The notes beneath the pieces are model-generated. The model worked only from the letters and a program-made list of their open reading frames with translations. It was not told the origin of the DNA and ran no database searches. This document shows, piece by piece, positions 9,888 to 33,437 of a DNA stretch of 33,437 nucleotides (position 1 is its first letter; each line of letters starts with the position of its first letter). Source of the stretch: a virus (taxonomy: Duplodnaviria; Heunggongvirae; Uroviricota; Caudoviricetes). The stretch lies in the IMG/VR virus record IMGVR_UViG_2540341028_000013. One strand, 5' to 3'. Position numbers and translations under genes: made by a program.

Positions 9888-9910
9888 TTAGACAAAGGAG
9901 CAAATTTTTT

Positions 9911-10962: not shown

Positions 10963-10971
10963 TCAACTCAC

Positions 10972-10990: not shown

Positions 10991-11007
10991 TGTAACGGAG
11001 AGCAAAA

Positions 11008-12616: not shown

Positions 12617-12618
12617 CA

Positions 12619-13886: not shown

Positions 13887-14341
13887 TTCCCTGCGTGAAG
13901 CCATGACCCGTTCATGCCGATGGTGTCAGGCTAACCCGGAAAAATTCACCATTTTCGTGGAGAGCGGCAACATTGAAACGACCGGGAGAAACCCCATCGT
14001 TTGTTTACCGCTATCAGATGGTGATGTTTGTCATGGATTACGCCGGGGAGCTGGACGACCTCACGCTGCCGCTGCTGGCGTGGTTATCCGAAAATCAGCC
14101 ACAGTTGTTGCTCAACCCTGAGCGTAATCAGGACATCAAATTTTCCGCCGTTATCAATGACGATGACAGCGCCGATCTCCTGTTTACGCTCCCCCTGCGG
14201 GAACGCGTTCGCATCACGCGCAGCAGTCAGGGCACACCGCAGGCAGAACACCTGCTGGAGCCAAAACCCCGCCTGCCATCTTCCGAAGGCGACTGGTCGC
14301 ATGTATTCCAGGATGTGACGTGGGGTGAAAGCGATGGATAA
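13873..14341 (+). pseudogene. R: P2-like tail completion protein gpR, frameshifted at about 13990
   Basis: N-terminus MLKTDSLREAMT...IFVESGNIETTGRNP (frame A) and the remainder SFVYRYQMVMFVMDYAGELDDLTLPLLAWLSENQP... (frame B) both align to P2 gpR (MLKPDSLRRALT...IFVDNGSIA...SFEKRYTLNVIVTDFTGDFDLLIVPVLAWLRENQP); junction at a CCCC run. Confidence 0.75.
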
Positions 14342-15897: not shown

Positions 15898-16794
15898 ATG
15901 CCTGCCGTTGACCTTTCACAGTTACCGGAACCCGCCATCATCGCGGAGCCTGACTTTGAGGCAATTCTGGCTGACACAAAGGCCATGATGATTGCGTCCT
16001 ATCCCGCCGAACAGCGTGAAGCCGTTTCCGCCGCGCTGGAGCTGGAATCGGAACCCCTTAACGTTATCGCTCAAACCATGTCGTTTCGTGAAATGCTGTT
16101 ACGCCAGCGGGTCAATGAGGGTGCACGCGCCTGCATGCTAAGCCACAGCGCCGGGACAGACCTGGACAACCTCGCGGGCAATATGAACACAAAGCGCCTG
16201 GTTATCACTCCGGCAACGGATACCACCGATGCAGTGATGGAAAGTGACACCTCGCTGAGACTACGGGCGCAACGGGCATATGACGGTCTGAGTGTTGCTG
16301 GCCCGTCAGGTGCATACGAGTATTTTGCACGCAGCGCCAGCGGTCTGGTACGCGATGCGCGGGCCATCAGCCCGTCTCCGGCCAACGTGACGGTTTCCAT
16401 CCTGTCCACTGAGGGCGACGGCACAGCAACGGAGGCGTTGCTTAATACCGTTCGCGCCGTTCTGAATGCAGAGGATACCCGCCCGGTGGCCGACCGCCTG
16501 ACCGTACAGAGTGCCAGAATCGTGACATGGCGGCTGAATGCAAAACTGTACTTTTACCCCGGCCCGGAATCCGAACCTATTCTGGCCGCGGCTGAATCGT
16601 CGTTCAGGAAGTGGCTGGCTGAGCAGGGGCTTATCGGTCAGGACGTGGCGTTGTCCGCCATTGCTGCCGCACTGCATGTGCACGGTGTGCAACGCGTGGA
16701 GATAATCGAACCCACACAGAATATGGCCATCAGCGACATACAGGCGGCGCGCTGTGCGTCATTCACCATCAGCGAAGGTGGACGCAATGAGTAA
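15898..16794 (+). CDS. J: P2-like baseplate protein gpJ
   Basis: 298 aa (P2 gpJ about 302 aa); position after W. Confidence 0.8.
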   Translation: MPAVDLSQLPEPAIIAEPDFEAILADTKAMMIASYPAEQREAVSAALELESEPLNVIAQTMSFREMLLRQRVNEGARACMLSHSAGTDLDNLAGNMNTKRLVITPATDTTDAVMESDTSLRLRAQRAYDGLSVAGPSGAYEYFARSASGLVRDARAISPSPANVTVSILSTEGDGTATEALLNTVRAVLNAEDTRPVADRLTVQSARIVTWRLNAKLYFYPGPESEPILAAAESSFRKWLAEQGLIGQDVALSAIAAALHVHGVQRVEIIEPTQNMAISDIQAARCASFTISEGGRNE

Positions 16795-19305: not shown

Positions 19306-19307
19306 CG

Positions 19308-19841
19308 ATGATGCACTTAAAAAACATTACTGCTGGCAACCCTAAAACAAAAGAGCAATACCAGCTAACAAAGCAATTTAACATCAAATGGCTTTATTCA
19401 GATGATGGGAAAAACTGGTATGAGGAACAAAAGAATTTCCAGCCAGACACTTTGAAAATGGTCTATTACCATAACGGCGTTATTATTTGTATTGAAAAGG
19501 ATGTTTCAGCAATTAATCCGGAAGGCGCAAGCGTCGTTGAATTACCTGATATTACAGCAAATCGCCGGGCTGATATTTCGGGGAAATGGTTGTTCAAAGA
19601 TGGCGTAGTGATAAAGCGAACTTATACCGAGGAAGAGCAGAGGCAACAAGCGGAAAATGAAAAGCAAAGCCTGTTGCAACTTGTCAGGGATAAAACCCAG
19701 CTATGGGACTCACAGCTACGGCTGGGCATCATTTCCGACGAGAATAAACAAAAATTAACCGAGTGGATGCTCTATGCGCAGAAAGTCGAATCTACAGACA
19801 CCTCCAGCCTGCCAGTAACGTTTCCCGAACAACCAGAATGA
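19308..19841 (+). CDS. G: Tail fibre assembly protein (gpG/Tfa), currently expressed orientation
   Basis: 177 aa starting 2 bp after the H stop; N-terminus [22 protein letters not shown] paralogous to the inverted copy. Confidence 0.8.
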   Translation: MMHLKNITAGNPKTKEQYQLTKQFNIKWLYSDDGKNWYEEQKNFQPDTLKMVYYHNGVIICIEKDVSAINPEGASVVELPDITANRRADISGKWLFKDGVVIKRTYTEEEQRQQAENEKQSLLQLVRDKTQLWDSQLRLGIISDENKQKLTEWMLYAQKVESTDTSSLPVTFPEQPE

Positions 19842-19869
19842 GAGAAGGCCCGATATTGGGCCTTAATTT

Positions 19870-20398
19870 TTACTCAGGCTTTTGTGGCCATTCGGGATTT
19901 GCTGTATCCACACGGCTGACCAGAACGCTGTAGCGTTCCCATGACTCCAGTCGTGTGCGTTCCTCATCCATCGCCATATTCAGCCTGACAGCGCGTTCCA
20001 GTGGCTGAATAACGCTTTCAGCTTCAGAAAGCAACGCGACCTTTTGTGATTCGGCCTGTTGTTGCTGTTCGTCTGCTGTATAAATCCGCTTAACCACAGT
20101 TCCGTCCTTAAACATCCACTTCCCTGAATCATCGGCACGACGATTGGCTGTTATATCTGGAATCTCAACGACACTAAAGCCTTCGGGATTAAGCGTTGGG
20201 GCATCTTTGGTTATGGCAACAATAATATTATTTTCGTCGTATACAATCTTTATGGTGTCGTCCTGAAAGTTATTTACTTCCTCATACCAGTTTTTACCGT
20301 CTTCGGACCATAACCAGATAACATCAAAATTCTTTGTTAGCTGATATTGTTCTTTTGTTTTTGGATTTCCGGACTTAATATTTTTTAATATGCTGCAT
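19870..20398 (-). pseudogene. Alternative tail fibre assembly protein (tfa'), frameshifted in codon 6-7
   Basis: ATG at 20398 follows the H' stop by 3 nt, but MQHIKKY* hits a stop; the conserved body ([20 protein letters not shown]...) is in the adjacent frame. Junction is a 6-T run at 20381-20386. Confidence 0.65.
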
Positions 20399-20401
20399 AA
20401 T

Positions 20402-21262
20402 TTACACCTGTGCGACGTTATACCATGTGCCATTGATGTATTTTTGTATTGGTCTGAAGATGGCTTCATCATCGCCATCTACTTCACCAATGATTCTTAA
20501 TCCGGTAATTGCGTGTCCGGCTTTTTCATAACGACCACCACGCGCCATCAATTGAACAACACGCGTACCCAGGCGAACATCTTTTACATAGCGTGAATCA
20601 AAATTCCCCCAGTTGCTGGGCTGTATCTGACCGTTAACAGAAAATATTACCGAGTTATCTGTATTTCGCTGGCTATAGAAATGCCATCCTGCCTCATTGC
20701 CTAACTCTGCAACTACTGGACGGGTTGAAGCACCCCATAAATTAAACGTTGCATTCTTTGTGGAGTTGTTGGAGCTGGATAGCGTGAATTTTTTACCATC
20801 CCCGGCCTGAATATTTTTAAAAGCAATAGCCACTCCATTCTGAAAGCGGAATACACGCTGACTATTAGCATAAACATCCAGAATACCGTCTCCATTCTGT
20901 TTAAATCCGGTGTCATTATCACCAAGAACAATAGAGCTACCACCTAACGCATTCGTCGAACCAACTCCAAGACTGCCATTAATGACAGCATTAACAAGAA
21001 TATTTAGTGCATCCCATTTCAGCGTCATCAGGTCTTTTGTTGTGGTGCTCTGGCGGCTTCTCCATTTGAAATATTCATTGCCGTTGTCGCCTGTTTCAAA
21101 CCACATGTATGAATCAGTGTCACCATCGGCATCATTTTTAAATCCAATCTTCGCCCAGTCAGTATTTCGAATCCAGGCAAGGATTGAGTCATTTTCAAAA
21201 GTAAGCCCACCGGACAAGGTATCGCCATTTTTTTGCACGGCGTTACCAGCCCTGTTTACCGT
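20402..21262 (-). CDS. Alternative tail-fibre C-terminal cassette (H'), silent in this orientation
   Basis: Frame open from the right gix site through ...[24 protein letters not shown]... to ...[18 protein letters not shown]; no start codon of its own upstream (TAA just left of the site); would fuse to H after inversion. Confidence 0.7.
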
Positions 21263-21288
21263 TTCCTGTAAACCGAGGTTTTAAATAA
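21263..21288 (-). repeat. gix/cix-like recombination site (right crossover site)
   Basis: TTCCTGTAAACCGAGGTTTTAAATAA, close to the Gin/Cin/Pin site consensus as recalled (TTCCTGTAAACCGAGGTTTTGGATAA); 55 bp upstream of the invertase start. Confidence 0.7.
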
Positions 21289-21342
21289 TGGCCGTTTCTG
21301 GCCTGCATGGCATGATTTGCGCTTTTGGACGGGAGATTCAGT

Positions 21343-21942
21343 GTGCTGATTGGCTATGTAAGGGTATCAACAAATGACCAGAATACAGACCTGCAACGAA
21401 ACGCTCTTGTTTGTGCAGGATGTGAACAAATATTTGAAGATAAATTAAGCGGGACAAAGACAGACCGACCGGGATTAAAACGCGCTTTAAAGCGCCTTCA
21501 AAAAGGTGACACGCTGGTTGTCTGGAAACTGGATCGCCTCGGGCGAAGCATGAAACATCTGATTTCTCTCGTCGGGGAACTACGGGAGCGAGGGATTAAT
21601 TTTCGCAGTCTGACCGACAGCATAGACACATCTTCTCCAATGGGGCGTTTTTTCTTCCACGTGATGGGTGCCCTGGCTGAAATGGAACGTGAATTAATTG
21701 TTGAACGTACACTGGCCGGGCTGGCGGCAGCGCGCGCAAGGGGGCGCACAGGCGGACGTCGACCGAAGCTGACAAAAGAACAGCATGAGCAAATAGCAAG
21801 GCTAATCAAAAACGGGCACGACAGAAAACAACTGGCAATAATTTACGGCATTGGCACATCGACGATTTATCGTTATCACCCTGTAGGCGATATACAGACT
21901 GAAGAAACAACCGGGCAGACTCAGGAAAATGAAAACCGCTAA
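21343..21942 (+). CDS. pin: Site-specific DNA invertase, serine recombinase of the Pin/Gin/Cin/Hin family
   Basis: GTG start 21343 (RBS GGGAG); (M)LIGYVRVSTNDQNTDLQRNAL...GDTLVVWKLDRLGRSMKHL...GINFRSLTDSIDTSSPMGRFFFHVMGALAEMERELIVERT, near-identical to e14 Pin as recalled, including the catalytic Ser in YVRVSTNDQ. Confidence 0.9.
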   Translation: MLIGYVRVSTNDQNTDLQRNALVCAGCEQIFEDKLSGTKTDRPGLKRALKRLQKGDTLVVWKLDRLGRSMKHLISLVGELRERGINFRSLTDSIDTSSPMGRFFFHVMGALAEMERELIVERTLAGLAAARARGRTGGRRPKLTKEQHEQIARLIKNGHDRKQLAIIYGIGTSTIYRYHPVGDIQTEETTGQTQENENR

Positions 21943-21965
21943 TCTGACCATTAGCGGTTTTTGTG
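21935..21965. terminator. Putative bidirectional rho-independent terminator between convergent pin and U
   Basis: ACCGCTAAT-CTGACC-ATTAGCGGT hairpin followed by TTTTGTG on plus and preceded by A-rich sequence (T-rich on minus). Confidence 0.5.
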
Positions 21966-21970
21966 TTAAA

Positions 21971-22465
21971 TCAGAACAGCCCTTTAACTGAACTGGCCGC
22001 GCTGTTAAGAGATGATGTCACCTTATCTTTGAAGCCGGACAGCATATCACTGAACGATGAGGATTGCAGGCGCTCCCGCAAATCCTCATCACAGCGTTCA
22101 AGAGTCAGTGAAAATTCTATCTTTTTCGCCTTACCGTAGCGATCAAACTCGGAGCGGGTCGTATTCGTTTCAGTCAGGACATACATGCCGTAAATCTGCC
22201 CGACGCCATCAATCAAAGGCCAGGGTCGTCCTGTATACGCCTGCGTAGTCAGCAGCGACAGCGACACTTCGCCACCTGTAATTTCAGGATAAAGCACACC
22301 AGAAAGAACGATGCGATCATCACCTGCACCGATATACTGCCAGCTTGCTGAACGGTTAACGCGTTCATTTTTCACATGCCGCCAGCTTTTGTTTTGCTGT
22401 AACTGCTGATGCGGCAGCGTGCGCAGCTCAAAAACAAACATGCCGTAGATCATCATCATGGCCAT
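21971..22465 (-). CDS. U: P2-like tail protein gpU
   Basis: 164-aa ORF; ...SWRH...LSG.LYPEITGG.VSL..L...GRPWPLIDG.G.IYGMYV... pattern as in P2 gpU. Confidence 0.8.
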   Translation of the reverse strand: MAMMMIYGMFVFELRTLPHQQLQQNKSWRHVKNERVNRSASWQYIGAGDDRIVLSGVLYPEITGGEVSLSLLTTQAYTGRPWPLIDGVGQIYGMYVLTETNTTRSEFDRYGKAKKIEFSLTLERCDEDLRERLQSSSFSDMLSGFKDKVTSSLNSAASSVKGLF

Positions 22466-22471
22466 GACTCC

Positions 22472-25315
22472 TCAATCTTTATCGTAAAAACAGCCACGCC
22501 CGGCACGGGCGCGCCGTTCCATTTCTGCCCTGACCATTTCACCGACCAGTTTCGCCAGTTCGCGGGGATTCTGCGTAACAACGTTATGCAGATGAACATG
22601 AATTTCACCACCAAATCCGAAGGCAACAGGCTCCCGGTTACGGGAAGTTACAGGAACTGATGCCACTGGAGATCGTATAGCCTCCGCCACCGGGCGGGAG
22701 CTGGCCGCAACAACAGGGACCAGCGCCGGAGGCAGCGGAGCCGGAACCACGGGTGTGATATTAATTGCGGGGGCAGGCTTACTGACCTGCGCAATCTTCC
22801 GCTCCTGCCACTCCCCACGAACAGCAAGTGCTCGGGGCAGGTTTTTAAAGACAATATCGCCGGGGCCAATGCGTTTTTTCGTCTCCTCAACCAGCTTACC
22901 TGTGTTATCAGCAATTTTGCTGAGTCTGCGCAGCGTACCGGTATTGCTGTCTGTGAGCGGTTTATTGTCTTTGGGGTTATCACCTCCGGTGCCATTGCCA
23001 TTTTCCACAGGCTTCGGCGGATTGATTTTCGCCAGATCCCCCTGAAGCAAGGCAACCTTGTCCTGAAGAATGGCCGCACGCTGTGCGTCTTCGATTTTCT
23101 TGCGCGCCCTTTCCGCTTCATCCGGAAGCACACCAAGCTTTTCAAGTATCCACGCCAGCGTATCCAGCAACATTTTTGCAGGTGTCAGAACAAGTTGTAA
23201 CGCACCGCCAAGAACGTTACCGAATATCTCGCCAGCACTGGTACATTTATCCAGAGTTTCCTTGCTGGACTCCATCGGTGACAGCAGCGATTTAAACCAG
23301 TTAAACACCTGGCTGATCCCACTCCCGATTGCGTCAAAAACAGGACCAAACCGTTCAAAGGTTTCGCGCAACGGGGTCAGCCTTTCCATAATCCCGCTGA
23401 ACACCCCGGCAAAAAATGCCCTGATGGGATCCCAGTATTTCCAGATAAGAACGGCAGCTCCGGCAAGCGCAGCCACGATAAGACCAACCGGACTGAACAA
23501 CGCCCCGATAGCGCCTCCCAGTAAAGAAACGGAACCCGTCACCATTCCCCATAGTGCTGGCAGAACCCTGACAGCATTCATTGATCCGGTCAGGAGGGAA
23601 AAACCAAGACGCAGTTTTGCCAGCGGGCCAGCAAGCACACCAATAGCCAGCGACAACGAGCCAACCGTTGCAGTCATTGCCAGCAATGCACCGCCTGCAA
23701 TCAGTAGCTGGCGCGTCAGTGCGGGATGGGCCTGCGCCAGCGCCGTCACCTTTGATACCACACGCGTGAGCCACTGCGTGACAGAACGCAGCGGACCGTC
23801 AATCAGATCTGCAATGCGGATGCGCAACCCTTCCCATGCACTGCTGAGTGATTTCAGATCGCCGTCAAGGTTGTTGGCCATAACCTTTGCCGTGCGTTCA
23901 GCCTCACCGCGCGCGCCTTCAAGTTCTTTTCTCAGTTTGGGTAAGGAGCCGTCACCTGCCGCATCAACGAGGGCCATAAATGATGTGAAAGCCTCTTCTC
24001 CGGCAATGTCCTTAAAGAACGATACCCGGTCAACTTCCCCGTATTTGCGGGTAGCTTTATAAAGGTCAGCCAGCACATCCTCCATCGGGCGCATTTTGCC
24101 CCCGGCATCCGAGACAGACACGCCAAGCTCTTTCAGCGCCTCTGCTGCCGCCTTTGGCGGTGATGCCAGACGAGCCAGGCTGGCACGCATTGCCGTACCA
24201 GCATCACTCCCCCTGATACCCATATTCGCCAGCACGCCCGCCATCGCTGCGGCCTGCTCCAGAGATATTCCCAGCTTACCCGCCACCGGACCTGCATATT
24301 TCATGGTTTCACCCAGTGCGCGAAGGTCAGTGTTGGTACGGGTAAACGCTGCGGTGAGTGTGTCGCCGACCCGGTCCATCTGGTCAGCAGAAAGACCGAA
24401 CTGCGTCAGAATATTTGAGCCAATATCCGCCGTCTCACCGAGGTCCATACCGCCAGCCGTTGCCATGCTCAGTACGCCAGGGAGCGCAGCCTGAATGGCC
24501 TGTGGTGTAAAGCCAGCCATTGCAAGAAATGCCTGTCCACTGGCGGCATCGCCTGCGGTGAACTGCGTTTCAGAGCCAAGTTTTAACGCCTGCTCACGCA
24601 GCGCCTTAAACTGCGGGCTGTTCTGGTCGATTCGCGTCAGTGCCTGAACGCGGGACATCTCTTTGCCGAACCCGATCGCAGGCTGCAAAAAACGCCCGGC
24701 AGCATAGCCGCCCGCCGCTGCCGCACCAATTGCCAGCGCACCACCTGTTTTCAGTTTTCCCGCTGTTTCCTGCGCGCGCGAATACCGCTCACGCGCCCGT
24801 GTTACACGCGCAAGCGCCTGCCGTTCGCGTTCAAGCTGGTTGTTGTACTGTTCGGTGCGTCTGATGGCCTGCTGGATGGTGTTATCGCTGCCTGTCAGGG
24901 AAATGCCGTGGCGTTTCAGCTCTCCGCCAAGCTCCCGCATTTTCTGAATTTCCCGTGTGCGCGATTCATTCAGGCGTTCAAGCCGGGTGCTTAACTGCTG
25001 CATCAGCTTTTGTTGTTTTTCGCTGAGCACTGTACCCGTGCGTTGTAACTGATTAAGGGCGTTAAGCTGGCGTCGTGCTTTCACGATGCCAGCATCCGCT
25101 TTACTGACAGCGTCACGGGCGCGCTCAAATGATCGCGCCTGACGCTCGAGATTTTTGATCGCCCCCTGCGTTCGCTGGATGGAGTCACCAAACTGCCCCA
25201 TCAGGCGGCGGGCGTTTTCGGCAGGCCGGGTCAGCCTGTCAACGGCGCTGAAAGCGACCCGGATATCAAGAGTCTTCATTGTCTGCATTCCCGCTACGAA
25301 GTGCCGCCCGCTCAC
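22472..25315 (-). CDS. T: Tail tape measure protein gpT
   Basis: Intact 947-aa ORF; long coiled-coil N-terminal half, Gly/Ala-rich hydrophobic middle segments, position between E/E' and U. Confidence 0.85.
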   Translation of the reverse strand: MSGRHFVAGMQTMKTLDIRVAFSAVDRLTRPAENARRLMGQFGDSIQRTQGAIKNLERQARSFERARDAVSKADAGIVKARRQLNALNQLQRTGTVLSEKQQKLMQQLSTRLERLNESRTREIQKMRELGGELKRHGISLTGSDNTIQQAIRRTEQYNNQLERERQALARVTRARERYSRAQETAGKLKTGGALAIGAAAAGGYAAGRFLQPAIGFGKEMSRVQALTRIDQNSPQFKALREQALKLGSETQFTAGDAASGQAFLAMAGFTPQAIQAALPGVLSMATAGGMDLGETADIGSNILTQFGLSADQMDRVGDTLTAAFTRTNTDLRALGETMKYAGPVAGKLGISLEQAAAMAGVLANMGIRGSDAGTAMRASLARLASPPKAAAEALKELGVSVSDAGGKMRPMEDVLADLYKATRKYGEVDRVSFFKDIAGEEAFTSFMALVDAAGDGSLPKLRKELEGARGEAERTAKVMANNLDGDLKSLSSAWEGLRIRIADLIDGPLRSVTQWLTRVVSKVTALAQAHPALTRQLLIAGGALLAMTATVGSLSLAIGVLAGPLAKLRLGFSLLTGSMNAVRVLPALWGMVTGSVSLLGGAIGALFSPVGLIVAALAGAAVLIWKYWDPIRAFFAGVFSGIMERLTPLRETFERFGPVFDAIGSGISQVFNWFKSLLSPMESSKETLDKCTSAGEIFGNVLGGALQLVLTPAKMLLDTLAWILEKLGVLPDEAERARKKIEDAQRAAILQDKVALLQGDLAKINPPKPVENGNGTGGDNPKDNKPLTDSNTGTLRRLSKIADNTGKLVEETKKRIGPGDIVFKNLPRALAVRGEWQERKIAQVSKPAPAINITPVVPAPLPPALVPVVAASSRPVAEAIRSPVASVPVTSRNREPVAFGFGGEIHVHLHNVVTQNPRELAKLVGEMVRAEMERRARAGRGCFYDKD

Positions 25316-25316
25316 G

Positions 25317-25534
25317 TCAGCTAACCACTTCGCCGGGCGTCATCATGAAAATTTCGGCGGGCGACCAGTTAAAAATGGCGGCAATATCCGCCACCAGATC
25401 TTCGATGTGCTCAAAGCACACCAGGGTGATTACGCTGCCGTCTCCTGCACGCTCTTCGCGCCAGAGTCTGGCTCGCTCATAAAATTTACAGCCACAGCGC
25501 ACAACTGAATAAAATCGCGTGACGACATTTTTTT
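25317..25534 (-). CDS. E' extension of the tail assembly chaperone (gpE+E' by -1 programmed frameshift)
   Basis: The -1 frame stays open from the A7 tract (plus-strand T7 at 25528-25534) to a stop at 25317 overlapping the T start; translation ...FEHIEDLVADIAAIFNWSPAEIFMMTPGEVVS. Exact slip position not determinable. Confidence 0.5.
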
Positions 25535-25804
25535 AATCATCACTTCATCCAGTCGTGGCGAGGTCACGCGAGGCAACAGCGTGAACATGGTATCCGCTTT
25601 CAGATTCAGCACATCAGACAGCGACAGACCACGCAGGGATCCAGCCTGCTCAATAGCCCCGGTGATCTCCACATACGTGATTTTTTCGCCACCACGCTCA
25701 ATTGGTCGGGTCAGTTTTACGCCACGTTCGACAGCCATATCCTCAACTGCCGTCACATTATCCGCCACGGTGTTATTCCGGGTTTCAGTATCGATGTCTT
25801 TCAT
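25430..25804 (-). CDS. E: Tail assembly chaperone gpE
   Basis: 124-aa ORF from ATG 25804 (RBS AAAAGGAGA); position between FII and T. Confidence 0.7.
   Translation of the reverse strand: MKDIDTETRNNTVADNVTAVEDMAVERGVKLTRPIERGGEKITYVEITGAIEQAGSLRGLSLSDVLNLKADTMFTLLPRVTSPRLDEVMIKKMSSRDFIQLCAVAVNFMSEPDSGAKSVQETAA
25528..25534 (-). promoter_or_regulatory. Candidate slippery tract for the E/E' -1 ribosomal frameshift
   Basis: AUUAAAAAAAUG on the mRNA; the -1 frame downstream is the long E' ORF. Confidence 0.4.
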
Positions 25805-25859
25805 CTGTTGTCTCCTTTTCAGTCAGAGGCGACGCACTGCGCCGCCAGCATATTACTTA

Positions 25860-26370
25860 TCAGCCAAGCCCAAGCGCGGAACGGATGCGATCGGGCACAA
25901 TGTCCTTGCCGTCCTTCCGGTAAATGAAGTTCAGCAGGTCAATCTCCCACAACGGGCGATCGTTAACACTCAGCTTGTAGTAGGTGTTTTAATGGCGTAA
26001 GTGTGTGATGTGGCTTCGCCCTGTTTGGCTTCCCCCATATCAATTTCCGTCACACGTCCGCGCATTTCGACTTCATACAGGTCGCTTTCTGCATCGGTGT
26101 AGTATTCACCCGCAAAACGCAGCAGCGTGCCGTCAATCGTGCCGCCATACTTAAGGAACAGCTCACGAACTGCGCCCCCATGACAAAGCTCGCATCAAGC
26201 GCGGAGTCGTCCAGACCGAGATCAATACTTACCGCACCCATCATGCCACCACCCCGGTAGCTGTCGGTTTTGCGCGTCAGCTTAGGCAGAGTGACGGACG
26301 TCACATTACCCACTTCGTTTTCACCATCCACAAACAGCGTAAAAAAGCGAAGATGTTTTGGCACAGCCAT
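25860..26370 (-). pseudogene. FII: P2-like tail tube protein gpFII, interrupted by two single-base homopolymer indels
   Basis: Three consecutive frames carry colinear tube-protein sequence: MAVPKHLRFFTLFVDGENEVGNVTSVTLPKLTRKTDSYRGGGMMGAVSIDLGLDD... / ...AVRELFLKYGGTIDGTLLRFAGEYYTDAESDLYEVEMRGRVTEIDMGEAKQGEATSHTYAIK / NTYYKLSVNDRPLWEIDLLNFIYRKDGKDIVPDRIRSALGLG*. Junctions at a G5 run (about 26176-26180) and an A4 run (about 25986-25989). Confidence 0.75.
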
Positions 26371-27554
26371 CAGGCACCTCCCAGCACCGCAAATGCGGGT
26401 TCAAAGTATTCATCAGTAAACGTCTGGTAAAGCTCCATGTCTTCCAGTGGCGGAACGGGCGTATATTTGTAGCGAATACGCACACGTCCCTGACGTAAAT
26501 CCGTGGTGCTGTTATCCACCACGTCATACCAGCACTCCGCGCCAATCAGTTTCCCGGCAGTCACCAGTGAATCCAGTTTTGCCCTGATGGCACTGATAAC
26601 ATCCTTCACATTCGCAGGCGTCAGTGGACTGTCGATGGTTTCAAACTGCGCTTCCGCAATTGAATCAGCCAGCACCTGTGCGGTTCGGGTATACACCTCA
26701 AAGATGTAGGCGTTCGTTTCCGGTGTGCGGTTACCCCAGAAGCGGAACCCGTTGCGACGAATAATGGTCGTGATTTCTTTGTTGTTGAGGCTGTTGGCAT
26801 CGCTGTCTTCGGCCTGCAACGACCAGAACACATGCCTCGACATCCCCAGCACATTTTTAACCGGAACGTTGGACAGCGATTTGTGCCATCCCTGTTCATG
26901 GTCAATGTACGCACGAAGGCCGCACGCATAGGCAGGCGCGGGGAACGTTTCGTTTTTGCCATTTTTCGGGTTGTAGGCGATGAAGTCCGGCCATAAGAGC
27001 ATCACCTCACGTTCGTTGAATTTCTGGCGGTAGGTAATTGCCTCGGCCATCGTGTTACAGCCATGACATGAGGCATACACAAACGCGCGCAGTTTATCTG
27101 CAATCACGCACAGGGATTTTGTTACCGCCTCCGTGTCCAGCTCCGGCGCGGCCAGAATACGCGGACGGTATCCGATGCTTTCATCCTGCTCTGCAACAAG
27201 CAGCGCATACATCCCCGTATAGCTGCCGTCATCCTCAGAACCACCGATAACCAGTTGATCCTGCGTCTTTCCGTCTTCTTCTTTGTGTTCAGCCACGCGA
27301 ACGACGATCACCTTTGTGCTCACCTGGTCTGCGATGGCCTTAAGCGCACGATAAAGCGTCCCCGTTGTCCCGCATTTTCCCAGCACGTCATTGACGCGGG
27401 TCAGCAGTGTGGGCTTGTTCAGCGGGAACAGCTTCGCGTCCGCATCATCCGCCGTTGCCACGATACCGATAACGCTGGAATCAACATCGTTAATCGCTGT
27501 TACCAGGTCGGTATTCTCCGTAACACGGGCACCATGAAAACGAGTTTCACTCAT
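26370..27554 (-). CDS. FI: P2-like tail sheath protein gpFI
   Basis: Intact 394 aa; ...FPLNKP.L.T.V...L...KGTL...L.AIADQ ... LRAFVYASCHGC ... GWHKSLSNV ... IRRNGFRFWGNRT ... YTRTAQV.AD ... YKYTPVPPLE, matching P2 gpFI (about 396 aa) as recalled. Confidence 0.9.
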   Translation of the reverse strand: MSETRFHGARVTENTDLVTAINDVDSSVIGIVATADDADAKLFPLNKPTLLTRVNDVLGKCGTTGTLYRALKAIADQVSTKVIVVRVAEHKEEDGKTQDQLVIGGSEDDGSYTGMYALLVAEQDESIGYRPRILAAPELDTEAVTKSLCVIADKLRAFVYASCHGCNTMAEAITYRQKFNEREVMLLWPDFIAYNPKNGKNETFPAPAYACGLRAYIDHEQGWHKSLSNVPVKNVLGMSRHVFWSLQAEDSDANSLNNKEITTIIRRNGFRFWGNRTPETNAYIFEVYTRTAQVLADSIAEAQFETIDSPLTPANVKDVISAIRAKLDSLVTAGKLIGAECWYDVVDNSTTDLRQGRVRIRYKYTPVPPLEDMELYQTFTDEYFEPAFAVLGGA

Positions 27555-27711
27555 AGCTTCAGCCCCTTGTATCCGTTAAATGATTCAGCAACAATCATCA
27601 CCCACCACGCGCGTAATCTCACCCCTGCGCCGTTCTCCCGCCACGGCGACAACAAAAAGCAGTAACCCCCTCCGCACGCACATGCGACCATGCCGCACAG
27701 GGAGGGAGCAG
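27555..27711. promoter_or_regulatory. Divergent intergenic region between FI (leftward) and D (rightward)
   Basis: 157-bp gap expected to hold the FI-operon promoter; contains TGATTCAGCAACAATCA dyad; whether any promoter here reads into D is unknown. Confidence 0.3.
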
Positions 27712-28821
27712 ATGACCGACACCACCATGCAATTGCTCAGTCAGGGCACGGCCCCCGTGAAAATGCCGGATTTTGATATTCTCTCGGAGGGTAAAACGCT
27801 GTCAGGCGTGGCGGAGCGCCTGATGAGCCTGTAACTGACCGACAACCGGGGATTTGAGGCGGACCAGCTCACCATCACGCTGGATGATGCGGATGGTCAG
27901 TTGCAGCTACCGCCACGGGGCGCGCGTCTGACGGTTCTCATTGGCTGGAAAGGGGAACCGCTGACAGAAAAAGGCACTTACATTGTTGATGAAATCGCTC
28001 ACGAAGGACCGCCGGACAGGCTGACTGTTTCAGCCAGAAGCGCAGATTTTCGGGATGAATTTAACGTTAAACGTGAGGTGTCCTGGCATGATGTGACCGT
28101 TGAGCGTGTGGTATCCGCCATCACTCATCGGTACGGTCTGAAACCGCAAATCAGCGAAATGCTGATGGATATCGAAATCGACCACGCCGACCAGACCGAA
28201 GAAAGCGACATGTCCTTTCTTACGCGCATGGCGGAAATGCTGGGAGCAATCGCCACGGTAAAAAGCGGCAATCTGTTATTCATCATGCCAGGTGGTGGCG
28301 TGAACGCACAGGGGCAGCCGTTGCCCTCGTTCGCCATTACACGCAGCAGCGGCGATCGCCATCAGTTCCGCATTGCTGACCGCGAGGCGTATACGGGGGT
28401 ACGCGCCTACTGGCTTGATCTTAATTACGGGAAAAAGAAAAAAGTCAGCGTGAAACGCCGCAAACCGCCAAAACCCAAAAAGGAGAAAAGCAGCAGTCGG
28501 GAAGGCGACTATATGGAAGGTGCGGAAGGCAACGTGTTTGTGTTACGCAAGACTTATCAGAACGAGCAGGCAGCAAGACGCGCAGCGGCGGCAAAGTGGC
28601 AGCAGCTACAACGCGGAGCCGCATCATTCTCCATCACGCTGGCGCGTGGTCGTGCAGAACTCTATCCCGAAATGCATGGCACAGTGACAGGCTTTAAAAG
28701 CGAGATTGATTATCAGGACTGGACTATTGCAAAAGCCGAGCACACCATTGATAACAGCGGCTTTACCACGCAGCTTGAACTTGAAGCAAAAATCCCGGAA
28801 TGGATAGCAGAAACAGAATAA
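27712..28821 (+). pseudogene. D: P2-like tail protein gpD with in-frame TAA at codon 41 (27832-27834)
   Basis: ATG 27712 (RBS GGGAGGGAG). One frame reads ...SGVAERLMSL-TAA-LTDNRGFEADQLTITLDDADGQLQLPPRGARLTVLIGWKG...WHD... to 28821, colinear with P2 gpD (...SRLVSLTLTDNRGFEADQLDIELNDADGQVGLP...); the stop replaces a single codon. Confidence 0.8.
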
Positions 28822-29069
28822 ATCTCTTAAAAATATTATTTTTGAGATGTGCTTCTACACTGACAGTAAGAACAAAAGATAATGTATCAGCCCACTAGAT
28901 GTCAGAGGTTGGGGCATCAACCAGATGCTAACAATAATACGGATGTTTTTCCCACATGACAGAGGAAGTCAAGTATAATCTTCACAGTCCATCCCGTCCA
29001 AGGGAATATGACTCAATAGTAAAAGTTCCAGTTTAGTTAGTAGACCCACACTTTATAGAAGAGTAATTC

Positions 29070-32000
29070 ATGATTGGACAATTTTTAAGTGCAACAGAGA
29101 TTTTAGCAAAGAACTATGTTCGTAATAAAATGGTTAAAAATCCATTTTATTCGAATTTAAAATGGAATTTTATTGAAAAAAACATCATAAGATTAACATC
29201 CTCACCGGTTAAATCAGTACTTTGCATATCAGCTTTTTCATTTGTACTACTTTATGTTGGATATTTAAACGAATTATTTATAAAAAATAATCTTTTACAT
29301 TATTTCCCGTTTAGGCATTCATTAACCGAATGGCAAACAACCATTTTAAGTGGCCAATTGACAATTATTGGTATTGTATACCCCCTTGTTATAGGTTTAG
29401 TAAGTGTCTTATTCCAAAAAAAGGCAGATAGAAAAATAGCCCAAACTGCTTATCAGCGTTACTCAGGATTCATGCTTGCTGGACTCAGCGGGCTTTTCTT
29501 ATCAGGATTTATACTTCTCAGTGTACTAATTAAAACTGTCTTTGGAAGTTATCTTTATGGTATAGCTTGTCTAATCAGCATATTATGGCTTTTGATAAAC
29601 ATAGTTCTTTCTATTTGGTTCTTTATCGTGAGTCTTGAAATTCTTGATGATGTAAAACGGCAAATAATTATAAAGCGATACATTGCCTTCGAAATAGTAA
29701 TGCCCCATATTTGTAACAAAATATCAGCCAAGCTTAGGTTATACCCTATCTATCAAAAACATAACTATTCAAATTTAGAAATCACGCAAGCCGATTACAA
29801 AGGAGAATACATATCTGTGGCTAGCAGTTATTCTAAGGAAGATGAGTTAAGTTTATATCACCGTCCTTTTCAACTTACTCTTAATCTTATTAATTACCAA
29901 CTAAAAAAGAAGAATCATTTTGCGTCATTTGTCATTGGTGATAATCGTACAAAAGAAACAGAATCCACGGGTAAGATACTTTTTAGCGTTAAAAATATCA
30001 AACCAGACAGCTTATTAATAAAAATACTTAAGCAATGTTTTTATAGGGCTCCGATTAAAGGAGGAGATTTTTCCGTAAGTCTTACAATGCAGGCTATAAC
30101 AGCAGATACGTATATGTATCTGCGGGATTCTGATCTCATTAGTTTTGACAATGCTATCTCTGCATTAATTAATAACTTTAATAATCTCTGCGATTTGTAT
30201 TTTTTTCAAGATGATAATACCAACAATAACTTCTTACTGATCACTACAGAATTATTTGAACGGAGTTTTCAATATGAGTTTTCAGATGAAGTTTATAAAA
30301 TATCAAATAATTCCATGGATAAAATTAATCTTTCTGAAAGATTTTTTGAATTATGTCTTTGGAGCGGAGTGCGTATTATCAATAATAGAAAACATCTTAT
30401 CAGCAATGAACTTTGTATCTATATGGGAATTACTCGTTCACAATGGTCAATATTAACAGAATGGTTCCGAAACAACCAATCACTCTTAAATGCCTCGCTT
30501 CGTTCACGTTATAATCGTATATTAAGAACCTATATCACTGTTTGGGAGCAATATCAAGAAAGCATAAACTTTCGTTTCTGCAATACAGAGAATTCAGATT
30601 TATTTGAATTATTTTGCAAAACGCAACTACAAGAACTTCCATCGATGATTATTGATGCAACACAGACTCGCGATCCTTCTACTATTGATACAGCCGTCGA
30701 TCTTATTAACCGATGGCAGCACTCAATGAATATTGACAGCCATTCGGTAGAAAAATACAGTTACAAAGGCCAGCTTTTTAACCCGGGTTTTTTCATATCC
30801 AAAAAACTAAACTTCAATTCAGACAGAGAGTGGTTCAATATTGCCATCATAAATGCGTTGACTGACATGCGTATATGCACATGTCTTTATCTGACATCAA
30901 GAATCAATACTTCTGACAAACTAATGACACATTACATTAAACTTATTTTAGAGGGTAAACTTATTGACCAAACCGGTGGATATGAAACTCCCACTGAAGA
31001 AATTGATAATGCAAGCCAACTAATCAAGATATTAATTAGAATCTGCCTGTGGACATGGTCTGAAAATATGGAGCACAATGGGTGGATGAATAGTTTAGCA
31101 AGGCGTTTACGTGACTATGATAAAACAGACATGGTGATGGGCAGAGTTTACAGTAATGTTTTTGACTGTGGATTTATTGATATGGAACAATCATGGGTTC
31201 AGCTATTATTAATTTTTTCTAACAAGAACGATAGCGTATCAAAAGAAATAAAAGAAGCAATAGAAAACAACTATATAACATATCGTGAGAAGCAACGACT
31301 CATTGGAGTATTATCAAAAATTTGTAACTCCATCGAATACACTAAAATCAAGCTGACTTTAACATTGGACGATCTCCAAACAAAAAAAGAAAACTTAAGA
31401 AAGTTGCTTCAAGAGCATATTAACATGCTAAAGAAAGATCTTGATATGAGACTTCAGGATGCTGCCATAGATGTACATCGACTAGATAGCACTGCACGTA
31501 AAACATCAGAACATCTTCGTAAACGCATCAAGAAAACGCTCCCTCTTTCACTTTTCAAATCTATTGATTTTAAGCAGGCTAGCGATTGTTTCACAAAACA
31601 TAAGATATCTATTAAGATAGATAAAGAACCGTATGCCGAAGGAATAGAATCCATCCCTTATATCAATGAAGGTGATATTCAAGCAGACTTAATTCTCAAG
31701 GACATCCAGAGAATAATACTTTCAAATTTATTTAGCACTGGCTGTTCGCAACATACCGTAATAGAAGATTTCAATATGTTGATTGATCACATAAAATCAT
31801 CTGCTGACTTGGCTGGCAAACTGGTTCTTGTGATGAGTAAAGAGATCTTTCAGCAATATAATCGTATGCTTTTCGATAATCCCAACCTCAGAGAACTAAT
31901 GAGAAAAAATGATGATGGCTCTATGAACATAACTACTGAATCCGGTACCCGTAAGGTTTACTTCTTACCATTTGTTAATCAACCATTTTCTCTTGTGGTA

Positions 32001-32189
32001 AAGGATAACTACTTCACTAAATTAATTATTAGAGAATATGATAATAATAAGTTAGTAAATGTCACTTCAGAGAATATCAAAAGTGACTCAGATAAATTCA
32101 AGCTAACTCTTAACTATGAGTTGAATATAGTATTTGAAGGAAACGCTGATTTAAAAATAGCTCACTCGCAAAGAGTGACATCAGAATAA
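29070..32189 (+). CDS. Large hypothetical membrane-anchored protein (1039 aa): about four N-terminal TM helices plus an ~850-aa soluble region of unknown function
   Basis: Uninterrupted 3.1-kb ORF in visibly AT-rich DNA; predicted TM segments around residues 50-70, 90-115, 130-155 and 160-190; no nucleotide-binding, nuclease or protease motif recognised by eye. Confidence 0.85.
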   Translation: MIGQFLSATEILAKNYVRNKMVKNPFYSNLKWNFIEKNIIRLTSSPVKSVLCISAFSFVLLYVGYLNELFIKNNLLHYFPFRHSLTEWQTTILSGQLTIIGIVYPLVIGLVSVLFQKKADRKIAQTAYQRYSGFMLAGLSGLFLSGFILLSVLIKTVFGSYLYGIACLISILWLLINIVLSIWFFIVSLEILDDVKRQIIIKRYIAFEIVMPHICNKISAKLRLYPIYQKHNYSNLEITQADYKGEYISVASSYSKEDELSLYHRPFQLTLNLINYQLKKKNHFASFVIGDNRTKETESTGKILFSVKNIKPDSLLIKILKQCFYRAPIKGGDFSVSLTMQAITADTYMYLRDSDLISFDNAISALINNFNNLCDLYFFQDDNTNNNFLLITTELFERSFQYEFSDEVYKISNNSMDKINLSERFFELCLWSGVRIINNRKHLISNELCIYMGITRSQWSILTEWFRNNQSLLNASLRSRYNRILRTYITVWEQYQESINFRFCNTENSDLFELFCKTQLQELPSMIIDATQTRDPSTIDTAVDLINRWQHSMNIDSHSVEKYSYKGQLFNPGFFISKKLNFNSDREWFNIAIINALTDMRICTCLYLTSRINTSDKLMTHYIKLILEGKLIDQTGGYETPTEEIDNASQLIKILIRICLWTWSENMEHNGWMNSLARRLRDYDKTDMVMGRVYSNVFDCGFIDMEQSWVQLLLIFSNKNDSVSKEIKEAIENNYITYREKQRLIGVLSKICNSIEYTKIKLTLTLDDLQTKKENLRKLLQEHINMLKKDLDMRLQDAAIDVHRLDSTARKTSEHLRKRIKKTLPLSLFKSIDFKQASDCFTKHKISIKIDKEPYAEGIESIPYINEGDIQADLILKDIQRIILSNLFSTGCSQHTVIEDFNMLIDHIKSSADLAGKLVLVMSKEIFQQYNRMLFDNPNLRELMRKNDDGSMNITTESGTRKVYFLPFVNQPFSLVVKDNYFTKLIIREYDNNKLVNVTSENIKSDSDKFKLTLNYELNIVFEGNADLKIAHSQRVTSE

Positions 32190-32198
32190 TATCTTTGA

Positions 32199-32228
32199 CG
32201 GCGCTCCTTAGAGTGCCGTTCGTTTATT
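32199..32228 (+). terminator. Rho-independent terminator downstream of the 1039-aa ORF
   Basis: CGGCGCTC-CTTA-GAGTGCCG stem-loop (8 bp with one G-U) followed by TTCGTTTATT, 10 bp after the stop codon. Confidence 0.55.
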
Positions 32229-32324
32229 AACTAATGCTAAAAATCATTATATAGAGAAAGTCATGTTTAAATCTTAGAGAATACAACCTAGAATAGTGTA
32301 AGCACTACAATAAGAGAGGTCGCT

Positions 32325-32520
32325 ATGTTCCGTTGTCCGCTTTGTGGCGCATCTGCCCGTATCCGCACCAGTCGTCCGGAAAATGATTCAAACACCGTGA
32401 GACAAAAGTATTATCAGTGTAACAATCTAGAATGCGGCGTATGTTTCTCAACACTGGAAGCCTTCCACAAATTCACTTCAAAGCACGCCTCCCCCATTCA
32501 CTCATCAGAGGGCATCCCGT
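32325..32520 (+). pseudogene. ogr: ogr (P2 late-gene activator, zinc-finger protein), 3' end disrupted by IS2
   Basis: MFRCPLCGASARIRTSRPENDSNTVRQKYYQCNNLECGVCF resembles P2 Ogr (MFHCPLCQHAAHARTSRYITDTTKERYHQCQNVNCSATF) with the four Cys conserved; the reading frame continues into the IS2 terminus at 32521, giving a foreign C-terminus. Confidence 0.8.
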
Positions 32521-33437
32521 TGGATTTGCCCCTATATTTCCAGACATCTGTTATCACTTAACCCATTACAAGCCCGCTGCCGCAGATATTCCCGTGGCGA
32601 GCGATAACCCAGCGCACTATGCGGATGCCATTCGTTATAATGCTCGAACGCCTCTGCAAGGTTCTTTGCTGCCGTTAACCCGTCTGGTTTGGGCATGATA
32701 CTGATGTAGTCACGCTTTATCGTTTTCACGAAGCTCTCTGCTATTCCGTTACTCTCCGGACTCCGCACCGCCGTGTTCTTCGGTTCAAGTCCCAACATCC
32801 GGGCGAACTGGCGTGTTTCATTAGCCCGGTAGCATGAACCATTATCCGTCAGCCACTCCACTGGAGACGACGGAAGATCGTTGCCGAAGCGGCGTTCCAC
32901 CGCTCCCAGCATGACGTCCTGTACTGTTTCACTGTTGAAGCCGCCGGTAGTCACCGCCCAGTGCAGTGCCTCACGATCACAGCAGTCCAGCGCGAACGTG
33001 ACACGCAGTCTCTCTCCGTTATCACAGCAGAACTCGAACCCGTCAGAGCACCATCGCTGATTGCTTTCTTTCACGGCCACTCTGCCTGTATGTGCCCGTT
33101 TCGATGGCGGTACAGCAGGTTTTCGCTCAAGCAACAGCGCATTCTGGCGCATGATCCGGTAAACACGTTTGGCATTGATCGCAGGCATACCATCAAGTTC
33201 TGCCTGTCTGCGAAGCAGCGCCCATACCCGACGATAACCATACGTGGGCAGCTCTCCGATAACATGGTGTATACGGAGAAGCACATCCGTATCATCAGTG
33301 TGACGACTGCGGCGGCCATCCATCCAGTCATCGGTTCGTCTGAGAATGACGTGCAACTGCGCACGCGACACCCGGAGACAACGGCTGACTAAGCTTACTC
33401 CCCATCCCCGGGCAATAAGGGCGCGTGCGCTATCCAC
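32521..33437 (-). mobile_element. IS2, partial (insD-proximal 917 bp; continues beyond the window edge)
   Basis: Begins with IS2 terminus TGGATTTGCCCCTATATTTCCAGACATCTGTTATCACTTAACCC and encodes full-length insD on the minus strand; matches the IS2 sequence as recalled. Confidence 0.9.
32532..33437 (-). CDS. insD: IS2 transposase InsD (OrfB)
   Basis: 301 aa; the window ends exactly at its GTG start codon; ...[32 protein letters not shown]...WLTDNGSCY... DDE-type catalytic region. Confidence 0.9.

Follow-up and report, generated by a model that had tools for sequence, protein, structure and literature searches.

A membrane-anchored 1039-residue cargo protein of a P2-like prophage, with a predicted capsid-like domain, is a probable phage-defence protein of a new kind

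What kind of protein is encoded by a long, AT-rich gene that lies open among the broken genes of a decayed prophage? The locus was found in the virus record IMGVR_UViG_2540341028_000013, whose entire 33,437 nucleotides constitute the window of our study and harbour a decayed P2-like prophage from a genome of Shigella/E. coli background. An ATG-started ORF at 29070-32189 (stop included) encodes a protein of 1039 residues; it is the longest ORF of the window and contains no internal stop codons either there or in two E. coli genomes, in agreement with the original prediction, which had been made from the sequence alone. The gene, its parts, its cassette and the flanking gpD and ogr genes all lie on the + strand. 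The same prediction had described the gene as far more AT-rich than its surroundings, and this was confirmed: its GC content is 32.8% (GC3 29.7%), compared with 53.2% for the window outside the cassette and 54.7% for positions 22000-28819, and the protein is high in L, I, S, N, K and F.

The gene is the only one in a 3.45 kb cargo cassette (28820-32273, 33.1% GC) that occupies the slot between gpD and ogr. The borders of this cassette were defined by comparison with prophage L013, whose homology to the window ends at 28819 and restarts at 32274, and which carries a DUF2971 gene in the slot. This gene, which corresponds to the PADLOC candidate PDC-S31 and occupies exactly this slot in sister prophages, is likewise a single-gene cargo; nevertheless, its product is unrelated to the 1039-residue protein, being soluble, 261 residues long and encoded on the opposite strand. 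Synonymous divergence is 4-9 times lower in the cassette (dS 0.018) than in the flanking phage genes (0.08-0.16). The sharp borders, the low dS and a GC content 20 points under that of the flanks bear out the proposal that the gene is horizontally acquired cargo. Neither direct nor inverted repeats were detected at the cassette ends, and the cassette was consequently rejected as a transposon-like unit.

It had also been claimed that the gene remains intact while its neighbours are broken, and this is indeed the case. On the left, gpD (tail/late control D; 27712-28821) is a pseudogene which, when aligned to intact gpD, is gap-free and 97% identical at the protein level except that codon 41 (27832-27834) is an in-frame nonsense codon. 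On the right, the late-gene activator ogr (32325-32520) has lost its 3' end to an IS2 element (approximately 32521-33437). Additionally, a frameshift near 10080 disrupts the capsid gene gpN, and the portal ORF is split. The suggestion that this intactness reflects selection on the gene found no support: among near-identical copies its dN/dS is about 0.46, estimated from only 31 substitutions, compared with 0.06-0.12 in the flanking phage genes, which indicates a weaker constraint on the gene than on those neighbours. Two other features of the window were considered and set aside. The inverted orientation of the tail operon is normal in this prophage lineage, including copies with an intact gpD, and is not a sign of rearrangement; and the low GC of a second region (18.5-21.5 kb) marks not additional defence cargo but an invertible tail-fibre segment, which carries a Gin/Cin-type invertase. 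The only RNA element detected with Rfam was an IS3-type ALIL frameshift pseudoknot (1158-1274).

The original prediction regarded the gene as an autonomous unit with its own expression signals, and this was sustained only in part. An AT-rich upstream region is present (28820-29069), where reading of the sequence suggests a candidate promoter at 28854-28883 and a weak Shine-Dalgarno sequence (AGAAGAG) 5' of the ATG, and a sequence scan located, 8 nt past the stop codon, a terminator-like hairpin with a T-rich tail behind it (32197-32220). However, promoter-like hexamers upstream of the ORF are not enriched (25 versus 17.5 +/- 4.5 in shuffled sequences), so that a promoter of its own is plausible and no more, and the three terminator-like sites of the region are not above the 2.1 expected by chance. 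Because the gene is AT-rich, it may be silenced in its present host, for example by H-NS.

In our study, we conducted sequence searches against annotation libraries, and those in Pfam, NCBIfam, PADLOC, PHROGs and the PDB were all negative. Neither Pfam nor NCBIfam returned a family at E <= 1 for the 1039-residue protein or at E <= 0.01 for 42 diverse relatives. PADLOC-DB v2.0.0 (5,027 models) gave no match at E <= 1 for the protein and one chance-level match (E 0.005) for the 42 relatives, and the only PHROGs match of the protein was a chance one (E 0.015, 37 residues). As a tblastn search of the gene against 50,697 deposited phage genomes also found none, the earlier statement that the protein does not resemble phage structural, lysis or regulatory proteins holds. 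Homologues are nonetheless numerous: a single search gave 183 matches, and a profile search (E <= 1e-3) extended the family to at least 500 clusters at 50% identity, nearly all of them full length, with members of about 1030-1150 residues. Their distribution is patchy, covering Gammaproteobacteria and one Desulfobacterota genome, and the gene itself is rare (5 of 5,426 complete E. coli genomes). [quoted passage not shown] Our accession and keyword searches of the literature retrieved neither a description of this family nor an HK97-fold domain in any defence protein, and the systems reported from P4/P2 hotspots (Bandua, Aernus, Toga, Reve, Crouga and Hailong; PMC13586616) differ from it in architecture.

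Hydropathy analysis identified four hydrophobic segments (residues about 47-66, 90-115, 134-158 and 160-190), which are also helices in the AF2 model. The N-terminus, the loop between TM2 and TM3 and the segment after TM4 are rich in K and R, which points to an N-in/C-in topology and hence to a cytoplasmic location of the remaining ~850 residues. The architecture originally proposed, four N-terminal TM helices followed by a soluble part of about 850 residues, was thus reproduced by hydropathy, positive-inside analysis and the AF2 helices. The four-helix TM module (residues 47-192; 29208-29645) is the best-conserved part of the family: it has two invariant residues (P105 and N177) and others that are kept in at least 90% of the sequences (Q96, G138, S140, W173 and F184), and the polar residues Q96, S140 and N177 lie inside the bilayer. 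It is followed by a small, variable cytoplasmic alpha/beta domain without fold assignment (residues 236-335; 29775-30074), delimited by AF2 secondary structure and low conservation, and by an all-helical cytoplasmic region of about 430 residues (336-765; 30075-31364) with scattered conserved polar residues (W492, E493, H519, D544, W549, N595, D599 and R657). Within the helical region, a loop (residues 686-699; 31125-31166) that AF2 modelled with low confidence (pLDDT <50) carries a G-R-x-Y motif (G691, R692, Y694) whose residues are 91-98% conserved among 96 family members. In a 35-sequence alignment (A1), mean pairwise identity is 64% for the TM module, 34% for the alpha/beta domain and 32% for the C-terminal HK97-like domain, a pattern that fits a conserved effector joined to variable sensor parts.

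Special attention was given to the C-terminal ~270 residues (about 766-1035; 31365-32174), which are predicted to adopt the HK97 fold of capsids and encapsulins. The prediction was built on a 35-sequence alignment and monomer models. AF2 modelled the full-length protein with a pLDDT of 78 and, in an independent run, the C-terminal domain alone with a pLDDT of 88 and a pTM of 0.81; the predicted domain displays the spine helix, the A-domain and the P-domain, and a Foldseek search with the model also pointed to capsids. This prediction changes the likely identity of the "sensor" that had been placed in the soluble part. The capsid-like fold itself had been missed in the first reading of the sequence. 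At the sequence level, the domain does not belong to the capsid and encapsulin families searched (Pfam Phage_capsid, Phage_cap_P2 and Linocin_M18, and the PHROGs head proteins): scanning 10 diverse C-terminal domains against PHROGs returned no head-protein family even at E <= 10, and the PDB sequence-profile search of the protein and its relatives gave no match and so no link to capsids. Its identity to known capsids is only 4-12%, and the domain is roughly equidistant from all capsid lineages. An origin by recent duplication of gpN, the capsid gene of the prophage itself, was considered and rejected (BLASTP E 1.6-2.5; hhalign score 17.7, inside the shuffled range of up to 18.2). We consider it quite unlikely that the capsid-fold call is a prediction artefact and that the gene encodes a membrane protein with an ordinary alpha/beta C-terminal domain, an uncharacterised cargo.

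The survey of homologues for a consistent prophage or defence-island neighbourhood, which had been put forward as a check on a defence role, was clearly positive. The family genes always stand alone, on mobile or defence-type DNA. One homologue, 71% identical, directly adjoins the Lamassu genes LmuA/LmuB (E <= 1e-175), and another a CAP12-PCTIR TIR protein; that of a P4-like satellite lies in the variable region beside a PDC-S15 protein, HNH and DUF3800; one in a Serratia island is found with DUF3800, HNH and TIR genes; one in the cargo region of an ICE accompanies AAA_15, HEPN-RES and Mrr genes; and homologues on IncF plasmids adjoin HEC-04/AriA-like ATPase, RES and OLD-like genes. Four type I R-M loci have the order hsdM-hsdS-[gene]-hsdR, and it is important to consider that these four cases are not independent events, since the operons are related (HsdM 78-96% identical among them). 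In 18 of 20 loci, the gene has a lower GC content than its flanks. We found neither a conserved partner gene nor adjacent head-morphogenesis genes (portal, protease, terminase) or encapsulin cargo across more than 20 contexts; a pair of genes for 247- and 323-residue proteins, without PADLOC match, recurs only near close Pantoea-type relatives. Recurrent adjacency to defence genes, occupation of variable mobile-element slots and patchy spread were all observed, which places the family in the operational class of defence-island/MGE-hotspot cargo. The variable loci of P2 and P4 are known reservoirs of defence genes (PMC9122126, PMC13586616).

Given this placement among anti-phage genes, the protein probably represents a new type of phage defence. 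Specifically, we assign a probability of roughly 55% to the reading, based on genomic association, that this stand-alone gene spreads horizontally and encodes an anti-phage (anti-MGE) protein of an undescribed family. In the mechanism that we propose, the variable cytoplasmic part would serve for sensing or assembly and the invariant membrane module as the effector. The capsid-fold domain might drive a capsomer-like (penta- or hexameric) self-assembly, or it might be an integrated capsid mimic engaged by a head-assembly component of the infecting phage, for which the major capsid protein, scaffold, prohead protease, portal and decoration protein are candidates. In both cases, the membrane modules would be clustered or rearranged, leading to a pore or another loss of membrane integrity, and the resulting collapse would abort the infection before progeny release. 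The membrane-disruption step is proposed solely because the TM module is conserved; the protein has no recognisable enzymatic or known pore-forming effector domain. It is possible, although we put this forward only tentatively, that the protein would be the first one in immunity to be based on a domesticated capsid fold: its HK97-fold domain, tethered under the inner membrane via a helical arm, would serve as an integrated decoy or a capsomer-like assembly platform, sense the head assembly of an infecting phage and open the conserved four-helix pore.

Other explanations must be weighed against this phage-defence reading. The gene could be cargo of mobile elements that serves in maintenance or in a conflict other than phage defence, such as plasmid/ICE exclusion, addiction-type stabilisation of its carrier or counter-defence, with the capsid-fold domain merely an oligomerisation scaffold. 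The distribution of the family over plasmids (a relative is present in 377 plasmid records, of which 216 are conjugative), ICEs, satellites, prophages and islands agrees with such a role, and defence islands also contain non-defence conflict genes. Nevertheless, the immediate neighbours are overwhelmingly of anti-phage type (Lamassu, type I R-M, TIR and PDC candidates), abortive-infection genes typically occupy the position between hsdS and hsdR, and no antitoxin-like partner gene is conserved alongside; we therefore regard this alternative as rather unlikely. The names given to some records by automated annotation, "MFS transporter" (PGAP) and "nicotinate-nucleotide adenylyltransferase" (the UniRef label of one relative), have an extremely small chance of being correct. 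The first fails the defining features of its family, because there are four TM helices within residues 47-190, not twelve in two six-helix bundles, about 80% of the chain lies in the cytoplasm, outside the membrane, and no MFS_1, Sugar_tr or NCBIfam profile matches; the second has no profile match either, and near-identical copies are named "hypothetical protein" by PGAP itself. A confident match to a housekeeping or transporter family, which had been named in advance as evidence against a defence role, did not emerge.

A further possibility is a direct interference with capsid assembly that does not kill the cell, in which the tethered HK97-fold domain would cap, or co-assemble with, the capsomers or procapsids of a superinfecting phage and trap them at the membrane. 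This idea is modelled on satellite-encoded capsid homologues that redirect the capsid assembly of their helper. An example is Ccm of SaPIbov5, which redirects helper capsid size; it is a soluble capsid paralogue of ~260 residues that is built into capsids and has no membrane anchor or large helical region. The low identity of our domain to capsids and its equidistance from their lineages make a specific co-assembly with capsomers unlikely, and the idea leaves unexplained why conservation is highest in the membrane module, which carries polar residues within the bilayer. For these reasons, we consider capsid interference improbable.

Comparison with known systems helps to delimit what is particular to the phage-defence reading. 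To our knowledge, the HK97 fold has so far been found only in virus capsids, GTAs and encapsulins. The HK97-fold shell proteins (tailed-phage, herpesvirus and GTA capsids, and encapsulins) have no detectable sequence similarity to the C-terminal domain; here, the fold would form the C-terminal fifth of an inner-membrane protein of 1039 residues, without adjacent portal, protease, terminase or cargo genes and with no sign of a closed shell. The only described fusion of an HK97 fold with a few TM helices that we found is that of the Family 3 encapsulins, which in Mesorhizobium bear a C-terminal extension of 4-5 TM helices annotated as "MFS" (Andreas & Giessen 2021, PMC8346489), a misannotation common to both. 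In those fusions, however, the capsid precedes the TM helices, is detectable by sequence as Pfam Phage_capsid and is encoded in biosynthetic gene clusters, whereas our protein has the reversed order, an intervening region of ~550 residues and no Phage_capsid match, and its gene lies in mobile-element/defence DNA.

The lambda protein RexB is a four-TM channel activated by the sensor RexA. Similarly to RexAB, our protein is prophage-borne and combines a small helical membrane module with a putative cytoplasmic sensing part, and a loss of membrane integrity is proposed; the suggested logic would be that of RexAB and other membrane-effector Abi systems in one polypeptide instead of two, with an unrelated sensing part, no PADLOC match and an inferred mechanism. 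In type I R-M operons, the gene of the anticodon nuclease PrrC lies between hsdS and hsdR, the position of the homologues in the four loci described above; unlike PrrC, our protein has no nuclease or ATPase domain, and the copy in the window occupies a prophage slot and not an R-M operon. Phage head proteins often trigger bacterial immunity, as reported for Avs7/8/10, CapRel and Lit (PMC12803255), so that an HK97-fold head protein would be the focus of phage sensing in all of these cases. Those systems bind or cleave the capsid protein of the phage, whereas here the protein itself would have the capsid-like fold, and it contains no STAND NTPase, toxin or protease domain.

Provided that the prediction is right, every annotation library has overlooked a widespread family whose members are mislabelled as "MFS transporter", and the bacterial immune repertoire would gain a new single-gene system. 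The combination of an HK97 fold and a membrane anchor in defence would represent a new route by which cells or rival mobile elements recruit viral structural proteins, and would offer a testable model for the sensing of late-stage head assembly at the membrane. Should the domain act as a decoy or assembly platform, immunity would become a third use of the HK97 fold, after virus shells and encapsulin compartments, and bacteria would have a counterpart of the integrated-decoy domains found in plant NLRs. The gpD-ogr junction, in turn, is a further site of cargo swapping, in one P2-like prophage lineage, which adds to the variable loci reported in PMC9122126. Finally, relatives of the gene are common on IncF resistance/virulence plasmids of E. 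coli, Klebsiella and Enterobacter, where the family may matter for phage therapy.

The intact 1039-aa ORF at 29070-32189 (plus strand) is the longest in the window, as the original prediction had described it, and starts with ATG. GC analysis bore out the marked AT-richness also claimed there, since the ORF has 32.8% GC (GC3 29.7%), against 53.2% in the rest of the window; the adjoining tail genes have 54.7%. By hydropathy analysis, the stretch from residue ~47 to ~190 contains four hydrophobic segments, in agreement with the proposed bundle of about four N-terminal transmembrane (TM) helices followed by a large soluble region. Because the N-terminus, the TM2-TM3 loop and the segment after TM4 are rich in K/R, both termini and the ~850-residue remainder are placed in the cytoplasm. 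The protein is a stand-alone, horizontally mobile inner-membrane protein, held by a conserved anchor of four helices and otherwise largely cytoplasmic. At 32197-32220, 8 nt 3' of the stop codon, there is a hairpin that ends in a T-rich tail. Promoter-like hexamers are present 5' of the ORF at a frequency not above that of shuffled sequence, so that a promoter of its own is only plausible for this gene.

Within a P2-like prophage that is integrated beside ihfA-pheT in related E. coli genomes, the gene is flanked by gpD (Pfam Phage_GPD) and ogr (Ogr_Delta). Homology to a sister prophage carrying another gene in this slot ends with the stop codon of gpD (28819) and begins again at 32274, some 50 bp ahead of ogr, which defines a single-gene cassette of 3.45 kb; no terminal repeats were found flanking it. 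Five other E. coli prophages from the lineage (L013, at 4949-6000, and L042-L045) have in this slot its commoner occupant, an oppositely oriented DUF2971 gene that encodes 261 aa and matches the PADLOC candidate PDC-S31 (E 5e-27). Between genomes, dS is 0.018 for the gene and its cassette, 0.16 for gpD and 0.08 for the sheath gene; that is, the cassette (28820-32273) is 4-9 times less diverged than the phage genes at 26370-28821 (0.08-0.16) in the same genome pair. This low divergence indicates a recent spread of the cassette across prophage backgrounds, and the contrast indicates that cargo and prophage backbone have different histories, the cassette having been exchanged recently through recombination between conserved flanking sequences. 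The dN/dS of the ORF is ~0.46, a value based on only 31 substitutions. The gpD-ogr slot appears to be a cargo site in addition to the two variable loci known from P2-like phages, Z/fun and tin/old, and it would therefore be a further swap site. Both described loci carry anti-phage genes (PMC9122126).

The claim that the gene is intact among broken neighbors also held. The ORF is open in the window and in two E. coli genomes, while the prophage around it is defective: gpD (27712-28821) has a nonsense mutation at codon 41 (27832-27834), ogr (32325-32520) is truncated by IS2, gpN, the major capsid gene (9900-10960), is frameshifted near 10080, and the portal ORF (6109-7200) is split near 7020-7100. 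Several E. coli prophages of the lineage are annotated with this same short gpD ORF, and others have an intact gpD. The IS load of the window is typical of Shigella: IS2, of the IS3 family (32521-33437), extends past the right end, and another IS3-family element with orfA/orfB (877-2090) contains an ALIL frameshift pseudoknot (Rfam RF01497, 1158-1274, 116 bits). Near the latter lies a gene for an Ead/Ea22-like protein (5040-5627, Pfam E 3.6e-32), a type typical of lambdoid phages, and the first ~6 kb may be DNA of another prophage or mosaic. At the prophage end, related E. coli genomes have a hok/gef toxin gene 3' of ogr (15977-16117 in the related locus L001), a position occupied by IS2 in the window. 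A second low-GC stretch, at 18500-21950 (0.42-0.45), was considered as defense cargo and rejected; it is an invertible tail-fiber module, an ordinary host-range switch, in which an alternative tail-fiber C-terminus (20402-21235, minus strand) and a tail-fiber assembly gene (19870-20475, minus strand) face the main fiber genes, together with a Gin/Cin-type serine invertase (21325-21939, plus strand).

The gene is rare, being present in 5 of 5,426 complete E. coli genomes. The cluster to which it belongs at 90% identity comprises 692 members, whose sources are Shigella boydii, S. sonnei, S. dysenteriae, S. flexneri and E. coli; IMG/VR holds eight near-identical prophage copies. A word-indexed search returned 183 relatives; Erwinia and Pantoea are the sources of those with 50-71% identity, and a ~1069-aa form with ~27% identity occurs widely among Enterobacteriaceae. 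Exhaustive searching with a profile yielded 500 clusters (50% identity) at E<=1e-3 and 148 at E<=1e-30, nearly all with full-length members of 1030-1150 aa. In a scan of species-representative genomes, the family was also found in Vibrio, Shewanella, Pseudoalteromonas, Alteromonas, Psychromonas, Psychrobacter and Oceanisphaera, as well as in one Desulforhopalus genome. A relative is encoded in 377 plasmid records, of which 216 are conjugative; nothing similar was found in 50,697 deposited phage genomes.

Conservation is centered on the membrane module, the most conserved segment in the alignment of 35 members (64% mean pairwise identity); variability is highest in the C-terminal domain (32%) and in the domain at 236-335 (34%). 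Among 96 members, P105 and N177 are invariant and Q96, V107, Y128, G138, S140, L144, W173 and F184 are at least 90% conserved, all of them in or beside membrane helices. F829 is 97% conserved in the same 96 members and invariant in subsets of 42 and 46 sequences. The helical region has scattered conserved polar residues (W492, E493, D544, W549, N595, D599, R657) and a G691-R692-x-Y694 motif that is 91-98% conserved (residues 686-699, window 31125-31166). This conserved but seemingly flexible GRxY loop is the only long loop with an AlphaFold pLDDT below 50, and one may speculate that it is a site of binding or recognition, modification or cleavage.

The survey of homologue neighborhoods agrees with the mobile and defense contexts anticipated in the original prediction. 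The gene is always solitary, in variable mobile or defense DNA, and no conserved partner was found across the contexts examined. These comprise the variable region of a P4-like satellite (with HNH, DUF3800 and a PDC-S15 protein), a CP4-type island (SymE, CbtA/CbeA), a small Pectobacterium islet (KAP NTPase, integrase fragment), a Serratia island (DUF3800, HNH, TIR), an ICE cargo region (AAA_15, HEPN-RES, Mrr), IncF plasmids (HEC-04/AriA-like ATPase, RES, OLD-like) and a plasmid-like contig (CAP12-PCTIR TIR protein); the closest homologue (71% identity) directly adjoins Lamassu LmuA/LmuB. The 129 flanking ORFs at 23 loci include type I R-M subunits, PDC-S02, MADS components, RES, DUF3800, integrases and transposases, and at 18 of 20 loci the gene has a lower GC than the DNA on either side. 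At four loci, with type I R-M operons related to one another, the homologue lies between hsdS and hsdR, the site of PrrC-type abortive-infection genes. In an uncultured Psychromonas locus (L037), a 4.5-kb family match with 21% identity (10001-14524) also lies between hsdS (~6844-7962) and hsdR (18017-21328); this may represent a copy that is interrupted, extended or in tandem, along with additional embedded genes. Two unannotated genes of 247 and 323 aa, on the opposite strand, directly follow the homologue in two different Pantoea-type contexts (L010, 13208-14989; L040, 11211-12990); they have no PADLOC match and could be a lineage-specific accessory pair or merely a co-transferred block.

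Annotation by sequence gave no name to the protein: it has no Pfam, NCBIfam or PADLOC match at E<=1 and only a chance match in PHROGs, profile searches of all PDB sequences were empty, and 42 diverse members searched individually against Pfam and PADLOC gave nothing meaningful. The rival explanation that the database names 'MFS transporter' and, for one relative, 'nicotinate-nucleotide adenylyltransferase' are correct is unsupported, given four TM helices instead of twelve and no profile match. The full-length AlphaFold2 model (pLDDT 78.4, pTM 0.67) consists of the helical membrane bundle, a small alpha/beta domain at residues 236-335, a purely helical region that extends from 336 to ~765 and, preceded by a 32-residue helix, a C-terminal alpha/beta domain. 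Foldseek with this model against the PDB found nothing significant overall and listed several phage capsid proteins. The best 40 structural matches are all HK97-fold shell proteins, as are 57 of the best 60; the matches also include a GTA capsid and the floor domains of herpesvirus MCPs. Sequence identity to these matches is 4-12%, the relationship was detected neither when ten diverse C-terminal domains were scanned against PHROGs nor by BLASTP against the prophage's own capsid, and hhalign against that capsid scored no better than shuffled controls. Invisible to these sequence methods, the link is a fold-level prediction; the C-terminal domain is predicted with good confidence to have an HK97 fold, and a prediction artefact is a rival reading. 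The same BLASTP and hhalign negatives rejected the possibility that the resident capsid gene had recently been duplicated.

Some capsid homologues, such as Ccm, are encoded by satellites and redirect assembly; direct poisoning of capsid assembly is a rival to a sensing role. Avs7/8/10, CapRel and Lit are defense systems that sense the HK97-fold capsid protein (PMC12803255). In the literature, we found no description of a defense-associated or membrane-anchored protein that itself contains this fold; what comes closest is a family 3 encapsulin of Mesorhizobium that is extended by 4-5 TM helices at its C-terminus (PMC8346489), whose domain order is opposite, which is recognizable as a capsid by sequence, and which is located in biosynthetic clusters. 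None of the recently named P4/P2 hotspot systems (PMC13586616) matches the 1039-aa architecture. A non-defense role in conflicts between mobile elements is a further rival, compatible with the satellite, ICE and plasmid settings; the recurrent company of defense genes supports an anti-phage function well, and we infer the latter. The variable cytoplasmic region would sense infection and the conserved membrane module would execute the response; most simply, the membrane would lose its integrity, as it does with RexAB and other systems that have TM effectors. Capsomer-like self-assembly might gather 20-24 TM helices, or the HK97 domain might be an integrated capsid mimic engaged by a phage head-assembly factor.

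Our study identifies a large, unannotated family that travels with defense genes. Although function and fold both rest on computation, we place it, by the libraries searched, outside every described kind of system, and the unexpected capsid-fold domain adds interest beyond the prophage cargo originally predicted.
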